Shown here one piece after another: positions 11,108-61,199 of a stretch of DNA of 64,000 nucleotides; position 1 is the first letter of the stretch; every line of letters starts with the position of its first letter. A model generated the notes under the pieces. The model was not told the origin of the DNA. It was given only the letters and a program-made list of their open reading frames with translations, and did no database searches. The stretch is from Escherichia phage UE-S1. The stretch lies in the sequence record ON568341.1; one strand, written 5' to 3'. A program made the position numbers and the translations under genes.

Positions 11108-13426
11108 ATGATTAACGTAACCAAGCGTAATGGAATGAAAGAACCGTTATCATTGGATAAGATCCATCAGATTTTATTTTTCGCTGCTGAAGGTCTAAGT
11201 GGTGTTTCAGTTTCTGAAATTGAAATTCGTGCACAACTTCAGTTTTATGAGGGTATTGAAACCAGTACTATTCATGATATTCTGATTAAAGCAGCCGCAG
11301 AACTTATTTCAGAAGATACACCAAATTATCAATATGTTGCTGGTAGGCTATTAAATTATAGTATTCGTAAGCAAGTGTATGGACAGTATGACCCGATTAA
11401 ATATGCTGCTCATCTTCAAGAAATGGTTGATATCAAAATATATGATCCTGAAATTCTTGAAAAATATACTCTTCAAGAAATAGAAGAGCTTGGGCGTTAC
11501 ATCAAACATAAACGTGACGATAAATTTACTTATGTTGCAATGCGACAATGGGAAGGAAAATACCTTTACAAAAACCGCGTTACTAAGAAAATTTACGAAA
11601 CTCCACAAATGGCATATATGACTATTGCAGCAATCATCTTTATGGAATATGATCGTTCCGTTCGTATGTCATATGTTAAAAAGTTTTATGATGCAGTAAG
11701 TAACTTTGACATTAGTCTTCCTACACCTATTATGGCTGGTCTACGTACAAACACCCGCCAGTTTAGCTCTTGTGTAGTGCTAAATGTTGGTGACAGCTTG
11801 GATAGTATTGGTTCATCTAATCACGCCATTCTACGTTATATTTCACGTAAAGCTGGCCTTGGTATTAATATGGGCCGCATTCGTGCCCTGGACTCCGAGA
11901 TTCGTTCAGGTGATGCAGTACATACTGGATTGATTCCGTTCATTGCAGCTACTGCTAAAACTGTTAAAAGCTGTTCACAAGGTGGTGTTCGTGGTGGAGC
12001 AGCAACTGTTCACTTTCCATTATGGCATTTGGAATTTGATAACTTGGTAGTTCTTAAAAACAACAAAGGTACTGAGTTTAACCGTGTACGTCAACTGGAC
12101 TATTGTTTCCAAGTAAACAAAACTTTGTATCAACGTTTGGTTGATGGAAAGAATATCACGTTCTTTAGTCCTAATGAAGTTCCTGGGTTATATGAAGCAT
12201 TCTGCTCCAATCAAAAAGAATTTGAAAAACTATATAAAAAATACGAATCTGACCAAAGTATCCGTAAAAAATCCGTACCTGCCGTTGAAGTATTCAGTAC
12301 TTTAATGACGGAACGTGCAGAAACTGGTCGTATATATATTCAAAATATTGACCATGCAAACACTCATTCAACATTTATTGAATCAATTGCACCTATCGAA
12401 CAATCCAACTTGTGTCAAGAAATCGCACTACCATCTGTTCCATTTGATGACATTAATACTGGTGAAGGTTTGATTAGTTTATGTACCTTGAGTGCAATCA
12501 ACTGGGGCAACTTTGACCGTCCAGAAGAGATGGAAACTGCATGTGATCTTTCTGTTCGTGCTCTTGATTCATTATTGGACTACCAAGACTACCCAGTAAT
12601 TCATGCAGACAGAGCAACCAAAATGTATCGTCCACTAGGTGTTGGTATTATTAACTTTGCATACTTCCTTGCTAAACGTGGTTTACGTTATGATGAAGCA
12701 GCATTGGAAACCGTTAACGAGTGGGCTGAAGCATGGTCTTACTATCTAATTAAATCTTCTGTACAGCTTGCTAAAGAGAAAGGTAAATGTGAAGGATTTG
12801 ATAATCTAAAATATGCCAAAGGTATCCTTCCAATTGATACTTATAAGTCTGACATTGATGAATTAGTAACTAAAGAACTAAAACAAGATTGGGAATCTTT
12901 ACGTGCAGATATTAAAGAATATGGTATTCGTAACGCAACAACAATGGCATTAATGCCAGCAGAAACAAGTGCACAAATTAGTAACAGTACTAACGGTATT
13001 GAAAAGCCACGTTCTCTTGTAACTAAGAAACTATCTAAGGATGGTATTCTTAAACAAGTAGTTCCAGAAATTAATAAGTTGAAAAACAAATATGATTTAC
13101 TATGGGATCAGAAAGATAACATTGGTTATCTACAAATTTGTGGTGTTCTACAAAAATACATTGACCAAAGTATCAGTGTTAATACCAGTTATAACCCAGC
13201 ACACTTCCCTGATGGGAAGTTACCAATGTCAACTCTCCTAACTGAGCTTATGTATGCATATAAGGTTGGTTTGAAAAATCTTTATTATCATAATACAAAT
13301 GATGGTTCAGATGAAGTAGACGTTGAGAAAGTACTGAAAGAAGCAGCAAAGCCAGAATCAGGACAGTTTGTCTTACCTACATTACCAGACTTAGATGAAG
13401 GTGATTGTGATAGCTGTAAAATCTAA
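11108..13426 (+). CDS. nrdA: ribonucleotide reductase class Ia large subunit
   Basis: 772 aa; N-terminal ATP-cone-like segment, active-site NLCQEI, C-terminal Cys pair CDSCKI; followed by nrdB. Confidence 0.9.
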   Translation: MINVTKRNGMKEPLSLDKIHQILFFAAEGLSGVSVSEIEIRAQLQFYEGIETSTIHDILIKAAAELISEDTPNYQYVAGRLLNYSIRKQVYGQYDPIKYAAHLQEMVDIKIYDPEILEKYTLQEIEELGRYIKHKRDDKFTYVAMRQWEGKYLYKNRVTKKIYETPQMAYMTIAAIIFMEYDRSVRMSYVKKFYDAVSNFDISLPTPIMAGLRTNTRQFSSCVVLNVGDSLDSIGSSNHAILRYISRKAGLGINMGRIRALDSEIRSGDAVHTGLIPFIAATAKTVKSCSQGGVRGGAATVHFPLWHLEFDNLVVLKNNKGTEFNRVRQLDYCFQVNKTLYQRLVDGKNITFFSPNEVPGLYEAFCSNQKEFEKLYKKYESDQSIRKKSVPAVEVFSTLMTERAETGRIYIQNIDHANTHSTFIESIAPIEQSNLCQEIALPSVPFDDINTGEGLISLCTLSAINWGNFDRPEEMETACDLSVRALDSLLDYQDYPVIHADRATKMYRPLGVGIINFAYFLAKRGLRYDEAALETVNEWAEAWSYYLIKSSVQLAKEKGKCEGFDNLKYAKGILPIDTYKSDIDELVTKELKQDWESLRADIKEYGIRNATTMALMPAETSAQISNSTNGIEKPRSLVTKKLSKDGILKQVVPEINKLKNKYDLLWDQKDNIGYLQICGVLQKYIDQSISVNTSYNPAHFPDGKLPMSTLLTELMYAYKVGLKNLYYHNTNDGSDEVDVEKVLKEAAKPESGQFVLPTLPDLDEGDCDSCKI

Positions 13427-13432
13427 ATAAAG

Positions 13433-13457
13433 ATCCCGCCACGGCGGGATTGTTTTT
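13433..13457 (+). terminator. intrinsic terminator
   Basis: ATCCCGCCacGGCGGGAT hairpin followed by TGTTTTT, directly after nrdA stop. Confidence 0.7.
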
Positions 13458-13471
13458 AACGGGGTGATATA

Positions 13472-14245
13472 ATGAAAGTAGATTATTTTAAACCAATTAG
13501 TATTGGTTTCATTGAGGAATTTTGGGATGATTTGGACATGGATATGATTGTCCGTCATCAAAAGCTTCCAGACGATTTCATTAAGAAGCATTTTGATAAA
13601 ATGAACCCTAACATGTTGGTTCGTTATCAAACCATGTCGATTGATTTCATAAAAGAAAAATGGGAATGGTTTGATAAGAACATTTTGGCAACATATGTTG
13701 TCATGCCACTAGAACTCATTAAAGAGAAGTGGTATGATTTTAAAGATAACTTTCTTGGAACAGTTGCAAAATACCAAAAAATGTCATTGGATTTTATCCA
13801 AGAAAAATGGGATGACTTTGTAGAGTTTAAAAATGGCGTAATGTCAGAAATCTCACGTTACCAAAAACTAACTTTGGATTTCATACAAGAGAAGTGGGAA
13901 TATATAGATAAGAATTATATTTCTTATTATCAAACTTTAACTGTTGATTTCATCAAAGACAACTTGGAAGAACTTAATGTTGCTGCGGTATCTGCATTCC
14001 AAATTATTTCTGATGATGTTCGAAATCTTATGGGATTGGATGCACCAGCAGCAACCATTACAGGAAACCAAATATTAGCTCTAGACCCGTGTCCAGAGGG
14101 TATGGCACGATATAACGCCCATACCCCTGATAACACAACGGTACTGACATGGAATGAATTATTACAAAAACACTTGGGTACACAGGAAGGAATTCGTGAT
14201 ATCCATTGGCTGTCTTATAAACTAGGACATAACATCAATACATAA
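13472..14245 (+). CDS. tandem-repeat protein (about 7 repeats of a DFI(K/Q)EKW-containing unit), function unknown
   Basis: Periodic repeats, e.g. KLPDDFIKKHFDK, TMSIDFIKEKWEWFDKN, KMSLDFIQEKWDDF, KLTLDFIQEKWEYIDKN, TLTVDFIKDNLEE; sits between nrdA and nrdB. Confidence 0.55.
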   Translation: MKVDYFKPISIGFIEEFWDDLDMDMIVRHQKLPDDFIKKHFDKMNPNMLVRYQTMSIDFIKEKWEWFDKNILATYVVMPLELIKEKWYDFKDNFLGTVAKYQKMSLDFIQEKWDDFVEFKNGVMSEISRYQKLTLDFIQEKWEYIDKNYISYYQTLTVDFIKDNLEELNVAAVSAFQIISDDVRNLMGLDAPAATITGNQILALDPCPEGMARYNAHTPDNTTVLTWNELLQKHLGTQEGIRDIHWLSYKLGHNINT

Positions 14246-14264
14246 TATATAAGGAAATATATAA

Positions 14265-15389
14265 ATGTCCGTTTTTAAAATTAACGAAAAATCACACTTA
14301 GAAAAAAATATGTTTTTTGATGAAAGTGTTGACATTCAACGATTTGAAAGTGTAAAATATTCAGCACTAGAGAAACTAACTGAACAACAAAAAAGTTTCT
14401 TCTGGACCCCAGGAGAAGTTGATGTATCTAAAGATAAAATTGATTTTGCCAACCTTAATGATTCAGAGAAGCACATTTTTACCTCTAACTTGAAGCGTCA
14501 AATTCTTCTTGATTCTGTACAAGGTCGTGGCCCAAACTTAATGTTACTACCATATGCATCTCTACCGGAACTAGAGAACTTTATTGAGACATGGGCATTC
14601 TTTGAAGGTGCGATTCATAGTAAATCATACACTCATATTATTCGTAACATTTATCCTAATCCATCTGAAGTGTTTGATACTATGTTGGACATTCCAGAAA
14701 TCACCGATTGTGCGGCTGATGTATCTAAGTATTATGATGAACTAGATGAGCTAGGTACATGGTATAAAGTTCTGGGTAAAGGAACTCACAATGTCAATGG
14801 TAAAACTATTGTCGTTGATATGTACGAACTTAAAAAGAAAATGTGGTTGTGTCTGAATAGTATTAACATTCTTGAAGGTGTGCGTTTTTACGCAAGTTTT
14901 GCCTGTTCGTGGGCTTACGCTGAAAATAAACTTATGGAAGGTAATGCTAAAATTATTCGTCTAATTTGTCGTGATGAAAATTTACACTTAGCGGCAACAC
15001 AAATGATTCTCCGACTACTCAAGAAAGAAGATCTAGACTTTGCAAAAATCGCAGAAGAGTGCTATGATGAAGTACTGGAAATGTTTATGTCTGCAATTCG
15101 TCAAGAAGAAGCTTGGGCAGACTTCCTTTTTAAAGATGGTTCAATCATTGGTCTGAATGCAGAAATCCTAAAACAATATGTTCGCTGGATTGGTTCTAAA
15201 CGTATGTCGGCACTAGGAATTAAATGTCCATATACTGTATCTAAGAGCAACCCACTACCTTGGACTGAGCATTGGGTTAGTGGTGGTTCAGTACAAGTTG
15301 CACCACAAGAAACGGAAATAAGTTCTTACATCATTGGTGGTATTGTGAATGATATCCAAGGAGATACATTTACACCATTCAAACTATAA
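14265..15389 (+). CDS. nrdB: ribonucleotide reductase class Ia small subunit
   Basis: 374 aa; ferritin-like di-iron signature region FFEGAIHSKSYT; directly downstream of nrdA. Confidence 0.85.
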   Translation: MSVFKINEKSHLEKNMFFDESVDIQRFESVKYSALEKLTEQQKSFFWTPGEVDVSKDKIDFANLNDSEKHIFTSNLKRQILLDSVQGRGPNLMLLPYASLPELENFIETWAFFEGAIHSKSYTHIIRNIYPNPSEVFDTMLDIPEITDCAADVSKYYDELDELGTWYKVLGKGTHNVNGKTIVVDMYELKKKMWLCLNSINILEGVRFYASFACSWAYAENKLMEGNAKIIRLICRDENLHLAATQMILRLLKKEDLDFAKIAEECYDEVLEMFMSAIRQEEAWADFLFKDGSIIGLNAEILKQYVRWIGSKRMSALGIKCPYTVSKSNPLPWTEHWVSGGSVQVAPQETEISSYIIGGIVNDIQGDTFTPFKL

Positions 15390-15403
15390 ATTCAAACTAT
15401 AAA

Positions 15404-15427
15404 GGGATTCATAGAATCCCTTTTCTT
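15404..15427 (+). terminator. intrinsic terminator
   Basis: GGGATTCataGAATCCC hairpin plus TTTTCTT after nrdB stop. Confidence 0.7.
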
Positions 15428-15552
15428 ATGGGTATAATATATGAAAGATATTTTTACAATAGATGCAAATGTTATATATGATTTTTATCTTACTGGGGGT
15501 GTGAAGGTAACGGGTACTGTGATTGATGTTTGTGATAATGGTATAATCTTAA

Positions 15553-17043
<1,491 letters not shown>

Positions 17044-60309: not shown

Positions 60310-60798
60310 ATGCCGATTCGTGGTGTACCAGAACCATTAATGGAAGTTATTAAGCATGTTCGCATTGGAGATCGAGAAGTTAATCTTCGCCGTAATAACA
60401 TTTATTACTTTAAAACTTCAGAAATGAGTTCTGTACAGATTGTCATTGGTACATCTATTAAGATTACTCGTGTACTTGATGGTAGTACTGACTTCGTTGA
60501 ATATAATGTACTTACTAATAAAGTAACGCATATATATAAATGGAGTGGGTATAAAACTATTAAGTATGAATTTGACTTAGCTAGAACTGAAGAAGAACGA
60601 TTTATGCTGAGTACTATCAATCCAGCAAACTATCCCGATCTTGATGCATTTTTGCTAATTTTAAAATTGTATAATGAAGCAAATCAGAAAGCTAAAGAGT
60701 ATGATAGAATCATGTATGAACGCCGAAAAGAACGTGCACAAAAAAGTTATGATCTGTATGATAGCCCATACGTGAAATATACTAAGGGGTCGAAATGA
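60310..60798 (+). CDS. member of FQxST-motif paralog family (variant FMLST)
   Basis: RTEEERFMLSTINPANY; ATG at 60310. Confidence 0.5.
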   Translation: MPIRGVPEPLMEVIKHVRIGDREVNLRRNNIYYFKTSEMSSVQIVIGTSIKITRVLDGSTDFVEYNVLTNKVTHIYKWSGYKTIKYEFDLARTEEERFMLSTINPANYPDLDAFLLILKLYNEANQKAKEYDRIMYERRKERAQKSYDLYDSPYVKYTKGSK

Positions 60799-61199
60799 AT
60801 AAAGAAGTTCAAATTATCATAACTCCACCTATACAAAGTCTGGATGTATCCATTAGTGATTTTTTGGAAAAATACTATGAATGGTTTAATGAAGATTCAG
60901 TAATTTATAACCATTCATTACCTGATGGTTTCGTTGAGCTTATTGAATTAAATGCCAAATCACTATACTTCTGTGTTGAATACAATGATTATATGACAGA
61001 TGAAGCATATCGTTTTCGTTGTACATTGTATCCTAACCATTTTTCCATTGGTTATAAAGACTATCAGTACTGCACCACTAACTACAGTGTAGAGGAAGAA
61101 TTTCAGTACAATTTACTTTATCCAGATTTAGATTATACTATTGCAGTACTGTTATCTAAAATTATGGATTTTTATAAAGGTAAATACAGTGCAGCCTAA
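60795..61199 (+). CDS. probable divergent member of the FQxST-motif family
   Basis: SVEEEFQYNLLYPDL. Confidence 0.4.
   Translation: MNKEVQIIITPPIQSLDVSISDFLEKYYEWFNEDSVIYNHSLPDGFVELIELNAKSLYFCVEYNDYMTDEAYRFRCTLYPNHFSIGYKDYQYCTTNYSVEEEFQYNLLYPDLDYTIAVLLSKIMDFYKGKYSAA

Follow-up and report, generated by a model that had tools for sequence, protein, structure and literature searches.

Entomopoxviruses encode a so-called tryptophan repeat gene family, a multi-copy set of accessory genes of these insect viruses with no known function, whose products consist of tandem repeats of ~23 residues with an LS-x2-FI-x-E core and conserved aromatics and are predicted to fold into alpha-solenoids. The label 'tryptophan repeat gene family' is also used in iridoviruses and in phage annotations. 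The same type of repeat is found in gp558–563 of Bacillus phage G, gp045 of BpSp, Listeria phage LPJP1 and PHROG 3532, all from jumbo phages and all of no known function. The genes of phages G, BpSp and LPJP1 form tandem paralogue arrays, as gp558–563 do, or lie beside helicase or tRNA genes, and none of them resides in an nrd operon. Here we describe a protein of this repeat type in a 64,000-nucleotide stretch of Escherichia phage UE-S1 (ON568341.1; hereafter the window), encoded between nrdA and nrdB, the genes for the large and small subunits of class Ia ribonucleotide reductase (RNR). It shares with the entomopoxvirus family the repeat length, the core, the conserved aromatics and the predicted solenoid, and is likewise a viral accessory protein of no known function. 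However, multi-copy occurrence, a criterion of that family, does not apply to this phage gene, which is present in a single copy per genome, and its product has an extra conserved C-terminal domain.

The open reading frame (ORF) and its flanks are listed in Table 1. Motifs equivalent to its Shine-Dalgarno-like sequence, GGAG or GGAT, are present upstream of the orthologues, and the distance from the ORF to nrdB is 9–19 nt in all of them. Given that a pattern scan of the window detected no terminator-like site between the ORF and nrdB, the two genes are probably co-transcribed. On the other side, the ORF was originally predicted to follow an nrdA terminator, and the hairpin and T-run at this place are indeed real. 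The hairpin keeps its position in 12 Rak2-like phages, either with or without the repeat gene, and across these phages four of its eight base pairs have changed on both sides while remaining paired. This covariation suggests a functional element between nrdA and nrdB, which may be a terminator, an attenuator or an RNA-stability element.

Table 1. Coordinates of the repeat gene, its parts and its flanks in the window
Feature	Position	Strand	Basis
nrdA, class Ia RNR large subunit, left flank	11108..13426	+	Annotated homologues; 93.8% nt identity to ph0011
Terminator-like hairpin, 8-bp stem and 4-nt loop (13432-13451), plus T-run; 3' of nrdA, 5' of the ORF	13432..13461	+	Pattern scan; fold energy -15.4 kcal/mol
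Shine-Dalgarno-like GGGGTGA, 4 nt 5' of the repeat-ORF start codon	13461..13467	+	Sequence reading
Repeat-protein ORF, complete, 257 aa: solenoid, then C-terminal domain	13472..14245	+	ORF listing; orthologues in 18 phage records; AlphaFold2 mean pLDDT 83
Seven repeats of 23-29 aa (aa 9-31, 32-54, 55-77, 78-103, 104-132, 133-155, 156-178), two short helices each	13496..14005	+	Self-diagonal score, repeat alignment, helices assigned by DSSP (pLDDT ~90)
Degenerate eighth repeat and linker, aa 179-191, ISDDVRNLMGLDA	14006..14044	+	Model has a helix at 181-186; alignment with the final repeat of short metagenomic relatives
C-terminal domain, about 60 aa (aa 192-251), alpha/beta	14045..14224	+	Invariant residues; predicted topology
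Spacer of 19 nt from the ORF to nrdB, with AAGGAAA (14251-14257) as ribosome-binding site of nrdB	14246..14264	+	Sequence
nrdB, class Ia RNR small subunit, right flank	14265..15389	+	Annotated homologues; 93.2% nt identity to ph0011

The original prediction, made from the DNA alone, described a tandem-repeat protein with about seven consecutive repeats of 23–29 residues around a conserved core, and our analysis supports it in each of these respects. The best ungapped self-diagonal of the protein reached a BLOSUM62 score of 126 at an offset of 23 residues, compared with a mean of 29.2 (sd 4.4) and a maximum of 53 for shuffled sequences (n=300). The repeat alignment resolved seven clear repeats, starting at residues 9, 32, 55, 78, 104, 133 and 156 with periods of 23, 23, 23, 26, 29 and 23 residues, and a degenerate eighth starting at residue 179; the core (L/M)(S/T)(L/I/V)DFI(K/Q)EKW...YQ is present as described. 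At the DNA level, the copies are only 63–73% identical to each other and Tandem Repeats Finder reported nothing for the ORF, indicating that the repeats are old; a recent tandem duplication was rejected on the same evidence. Each repeat, together with its specific residues, is conserved orthologue by orthologue among 13 orthologues. No repeat paralogue was found elsewhere in the window. A 134-residue ORF (60795–61199, + strand) contains a stretch, ISDFLEKYYEWFNEDSVIYNHSLPDGFVE (60846–60938), that resembles one repeat unit at a tblastn E value of 0.29, which is probably a chance match.

A Foldseek search against BFVD retrieved, as its best matches, the tryptophan repeat proteins AMV029, MSV027, MSV205 and a Mythimna EPV member at E values of 5e-10 to 4e-9, with TM scores of 0.56–0.60 and 20–27% identity, as well as phage G gp558–563 and proteins of Pithovirus, Orpheovirus and Marseillevirus. 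Sequence searches pointed to the same relatives. BLASTP aligned the protein to phage G gp563 at 2e-16, through the repeats alone and excluding the C-terminal domain; tblastn matched BpSp gp045, itself annotated 'tryptophan repeat gene family protein', at 4e-12, and 12 places in Listeria phage LPJP1 at 6e-13. The PHROG 3532 match reached 4.7e-34, with PHROGs returning only families of unknown function. The similarity to phage G is also noted in the GenBank record of Pectobacterium phage CBB, which cites gp559; the CBB genome paper lists CBB_303 and CBB_305 and leaves CBB_304 unmentioned. Among 1.8 billion cluster representatives, phmmer found 679 proteins at E<=1e-3, and W-x2-IS-x-YQ-x-LSE(D/E)FIREF-x-DKVDW is their canonical unit; the ten hits whose cluster members were listed are all metagenomic proteins without a name, and a search with a two-unit repeat profile retrieved short fragments only. 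Scans of the ORF and its canonical relatives against Pfam, NCBIfam and PADLOC gave nothing meaningful, and no solved structure in the PDB matched the repeat protein. The likeness to HEAT/ARM proteins (importin-beta, PP2A-A) and to the leucine-rich repeat variant (1lrv) is limited to weak scores at 4–11% identity, which are no evidence of homology, and HEAT/ARM units have about 40 residues against 23–29 here. By both sequence and predicted fold, the protein thus belongs to the viral tryptophan repeat class. In repeats 1 and 3–6, its tryptophan lies in the EKW motif, five residues before the Trp of the canonical DKVDW of related proteins, and the canonical position is occupied by Lys, Asn or Asp. 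Judged from this shift, the protein probably represents a divergent subfamily of the class.

Consistent with the repeats read from the sequence, AlphaFold2 predicted one helix pair per repeat. In this model, computed from a shallow alignment (mean pLDDT 83), residues 1–180 have a pLDDT of about 90 and form stacked helix pairs, that is, an alpha-solenoid. The predicted solenoid spans residues 9–190, with seven full repeats and one partial one, each a helix-turn-helix unit of 23–29 residues. It is followed by the C-terminal domain, in which Pro192, Ile201, Pro206-Cys207, Trp227, Asp243-Ile244 and Trp246-Leu247 are invariant, and for which AlphaFold2 with a 24-sequence alignment predicted a beta-alpha-alpha-beta-alpha-alpha topology (pLDDT 82). 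The invariant Pro-Cys pair could point to chemistry instead of binding. In the searches run, this domain was found only behind such repeats, and it is shared only with ~20 clusters of short metagenomic proteins that have 2–4 canonical repeats ahead of it. These proteins (100–165 residues; P0072 and P0157–P0173) match at E values of 6e-38 to 2e-24 and have the identical architecture, with the common C-terminal signature RP...I...PC-x2-G-x2-(R/K)Y...(T/S)WN-x-L...DI-x-WL; however, their repeats are fewer and more canonical, and their genes occur in tandem with paralogues. Tandem arrangements with further repeat paralogues were seen in five metagenomic contigs (L022, L023, L026, L029 and L030), and the gene upstream of P0169 in the contigs examined (L022 and L023) encodes a 668-residue AAA ATPase. 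Weak Thioredoxin_17 matches among the neighbours of the short relatives turned out to be artefacts of repeat paralogues. A kinship of the C-terminal domain with the Spx-like gp564 of phage G was rejected as well, for the tblastn alignment crossed a stop codon and left a match of just 20 residues. Two metagenomic repeat proteins, P0009 and P0012, end in a different conserved domain, ...AYKGIR-x-DNYS-x-(Y/F)NFQYKYE..., which indicates that the repeat-plus-tail architecture is modular.

The window belongs to a Rak2-like jumbo coliphage of the Asteriusvirus group, and the closest relatives of its locus are those of ph0011, PBECO4 and 121Q, phages of the same group, with 92–94% identity in nrdA and nrdB. 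A comparison of the nrdA–nrdB interval, as suggested with the original prediction, showed the gene to be variably present among related phages: 18 GenBank phage records from at least four clades carry it at exactly this site, and in these closest relatives it is missing, leaving a gap of just 54 nt between nrdA and nrdB. The carriers span members of Asteriusvirus, Mimasvirus and Eneladusvirus, plus XaC1 and EJP2. Their copies are 83% identical in amino-acid sequence to that of UE-S1 in Turkey3, Ecwhy_1, BF17, WPEC3, WPEC5, EC.P1 and fEgEco12, 80% in JNE01, 70% in XaC1, 67% in Yersinia phages fHe-Yen9-03 and fHe-Yen9-04, and 62–66% in EJP2, XbC2, Kaldavass and Pectobacterium phage CBB. All are 257 residues long, save that of EJP2 with 254, and each Rak2-like record has the gene in a single place. 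Two metagenomic contigs also bear it between nrdA and nrdB. The gene is absent from the PBECO4/121Q group and ph0011, and also from TH47, CMSTMSU, A4, Turkey5, Klebsiella phage fENko-Kae01, Salmonella phages Munch, 7t3 and SE_PL, the Erwinia pEa_SNUABM phages and Serratia phage BF; altogether, of the related phage records listed in the search, at least 35 lack it and have both nrdA and nrdB intact. In Cronobacter phage GAP32, the same site is occupied by GAP32_299 (L005 2182–2919), a 245-residue endonuclease-like protein with MUG113 and DUF723 matches and no similarity to the repeat ORF. The nrdA–nrdB spacer of Rak2-like phages is therefore a hotspot with three states: empty, repeat gene and endonuclease gene. 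The subunit genes themselves are also interrupted in places, nrdB of fHe-Yen9-04 by a 245-residue gene (g299; L015 3448–5615), and nrdA and nrdB of a metagenomic relative (L020 1041–7020) by an HNH_3/NUMOD4 gene and a DUF723 gene, respectively; these are probably introns or inteins with homing endonucleases. The same contig encodes a 169-residue repeat protein (P0005; L020 4001–4510) that retains repeats 1 and 2 as well as the C-terminal domain and lacks repeats 3–7, which looks like the outcome of an in-frame deletion between repeats.

To trace the history of the gene, a neighbour-joining tree of NrdA plus NrdB (bootstrap of 200) was compared with a tree of the ORF. In the former, the window is sister to ph0011 (197 of 200 replicates), JNE01 to Turkey5, Turkey3 to TH47 and CMSTMSU, and fHe-Yen9-04 to Serratia phage BF (200 of 200 each), the first-named of each group having the gene and its sisters lacking it. 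The ORF tree recovers the same major clades. The ORF is under strong purifying selection, with a dN/dS of 0.044–0.062 that matches those of nrdA and nrdB; the value of 0.044 comes from XbC2 versus Kaldavass, where dS is unsaturated (0.48). Between the window and Turkey3, however, the dS of the ORF is about 2.3, a saturated value, against 0.70 for nrdA and 0.95 for nrdB, which indicates that its history was not purely vertical. The flanks of the ORF in the window (11108–13360 and 14246–15900) are a recombination patchwork of blocks of 150–1200 nt, in which the best match alternates among ph0011, PBECO4 and A4 at 93–99% identity; for instance, positions 14246–14395 are 98% identical to A4 against 84% to PBECO4. 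The sequence adjoining the ORF is closest to phages without the gene.

The empty spacer of Turkey5 (L010 2628–2721, 94 nt) keeps the ribosome-binding site and the first ~10 nt of the ORF, with the start codon ATG changed to ATA, and also the last ~12 nt of the ORF with its stop codon, directly before the nrdB ribosome-binding site; to judge from these two retained ends, it is a deletion scar of the repeat gene. In PBECO4, ph0011 and TH47, the spacers end in A(T/A)AT(A/T)TAA before the same ribosome-binding site, which may be a gene remnant, yet is too AT-rich to be sure. Comparative sequence analysis showed that the gene goes back to the ancestor shared by the Asteriusvirus, Mimasvirus and Eneladusvirus phages, and that its place has at all times been the interval from the conserved nrdA hairpin to the ribosome-binding site of nrdB. 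The polymorphism mostly reflects loss and allele exchange, either by repeated deletion or by acquisition of an empty allele via homologous recombination in the nrd flanks.

As for function, the explanation that we favour by analogy, though with a confidence only somewhat better than even, is that the gene encodes an old, dispensable, two-domain accessory protein of Rak2-like jumbo phages that is co-expressed with nrdB and acts as a protein-binding adaptor. Alpha-solenoids are generic protein-binding scaffolds. As the short hairpin-free distance to nrdB suggests, the protein would be expressed together with nrdB; this would happen by read-through of the nrdA hairpin. From its fold class and by analogy, it would be a non-catalytic binder, with a protein partner bound to the surface of the solenoid and contacted a second time by the C-terminal domain; the tandem paralogue arrays of its relatives and the variety of their C-terminal domains are consistent with such a role. 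Among the entomopoxvirus members of the family, AMV254 is reported to contain an F-box (PMC7728225). No member of the repeat family, however, has a known partner, activity or phenotype. The putative partner could be a defence component or another host factor that matters in some host strains and not in others, which would explain why the gene is dispensable, and RNR itself would work without the repeat protein. Indeed, the existence of sister phages without the gene indicates that it is dispensable for the phage lifestyle.

Alternatively, the protein might be an RNR-linked accessory factor that, by binding NrdA, NrdB or both, or else the dNTP-synthesis complex, serves as a scaffold, a regulator or an aid to assembly. 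This would explain why the gene has stayed in the nrd operon, and a functional link to RNR could be the reason that its position there is the same even in distantly related phages. It lies between nrdA and nrdB in 18 of 18 phage records and in both metagenomic contigs examined, is separated from nrdB by a short distance that contains no terminator, experiences purifying selection of a strength equal to that on its two neighbours, nrdA and nrdB, and encodes an invariant Cys in the C-terminal domain. However, the records with intact nrdA and nrdB that lack the gene include sisters with a near-identical RNR, and in BpSp, phage G and metagenomic contigs the genes for related repeat proteins have no nrd neighbours. 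The protein also bears no likeness to NrdI, NrdH/glutaredoxin, YfaE, NrdR or thioredoxin by Pfam or NCBIfam, and its predicted folds are a solenoid and a small helical domain; with no flavodoxin, thioredoxin, 2Fe-2S ferredoxin or ATP-cone sequence or fold, its identity as a known RNR accessory protein was rejected. We therefore regard an RNR-linked role as unlikely.

It is similarly improbable that the protein is a counter-defence or host-takeover effector, in which the solenoid would neutralise a strain-specific immunity protein or a nucleotide-depleting protein and the gene would be kept solely in lineages that encounter such a protein. In favour of such a role, its presence differs between sister phages and its alleles are exchanged by recombination, and its amino-acid sequence evolves faster than the flanks (relative to Turkey3, the repeat protein is 83% identical, NrdA 97% and NrdB 94%). 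Other large viruses have paralogue arrays of the family, and the position of the gene suggests that its timing is probably shared with the nucleotide-metabolism genes. Against this, a dN/dS of about 0.05 for the gene as a whole gives no hint of diversifying selection, the best PADLOC E value of 0.01 is not meaningful, no known anti-defence protein matched, and presence of the gene has no visible correlation with host genus.

The original prediction also held that the gene may be an insertion. A recent insertion of a mobile cassette into the nrdA–nrdB spacer, as free-standing homing endonuclease genes do, would fit the absence of the gene from ph0011, PBECO4 and 121Q despite their highly similar nrdA and nrdB, the presence of the endonuclease-like gene at the same site in GAP32, and the HNH or DUF723 genes that interrupt nrdA or nrdB in the metagenomic relative and fHe-Yen9-04; T4 mobE, which lies between nrdA and nrdB, would be another precedent. 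The repeat gene resembles mobE and GAP32_299 in its location and its sporadic occurrence among relatives; unlike homing endonuclease genes, however, it has a congruent phylogeny and a single fixed locus. No nuclease domain (GIY-YIG, HNH, LAGLIDADG, PD-(D/E)xK and others) was detected by Pfam, PHROG function, NCBIfam or fold, nor was any integrase or transposase domain by sequence or fold, and apart from the two ribosome-binding sites the ORF is not flanked by repeats. In the nine phage loci that were analysed, every copy is intact. A homing endonuclease identity was rejected given the missing nuclease domain, the lack of an incongruent phylogeny and these intact copies. Moreover, the similarity of the ORF-adjacent sequence to gene-less phages means that no known donor has left a co-conversion tract. 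The occurrence of orthologues at one and the same site even in clades with just 62% amino-acid identity, the congruent tree, the purifying selection and the Turkey5 scar together argue for an old gene that has often been lost, so that a recent insertion is very doubtful, and what survives of the claim is a possible ancient insertion or acquisition at the root of the group. A chance ORF was rejected.

In summary, the repeat gene in itself matters little, being one more hypothetical accessory gene of jumbo phages, and the novelty is limited to this allele and its evolutionary picture, since orthologues are already deposited as 'hypothetical protein' in the 18 GenBank records. Its locus nevertheless provides a documented three-state nrdA–nrdB spacer inside a recombination mosaic. 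It also belongs to a class of 23-residue repeats that occurs both in jumbo phages and in large DNA viruses of eukaryotes and lacks a Pfam or NCBIfam model, a solved structure and a known function. For this class the present copy is a clean test case, as the only one in its genome, strongly constrained by purifying selection and naturally knocked out in sister phages. A bolder reading, to which we give a slim chance, is that the repeats and the C-terminal domain together are a functional part of the dNTP supply of the phage, for example as a scaffold or protector of the phage RNR or as an inhibitor of a host factor that starves phage dNTP synthesis or senses it, with the Pro-Cys domain as a new small fold carrying the activity. 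If true, this would provide the first function for a repeat family found in jumbo phages as well as in entomopoxviruses and giant viruses.
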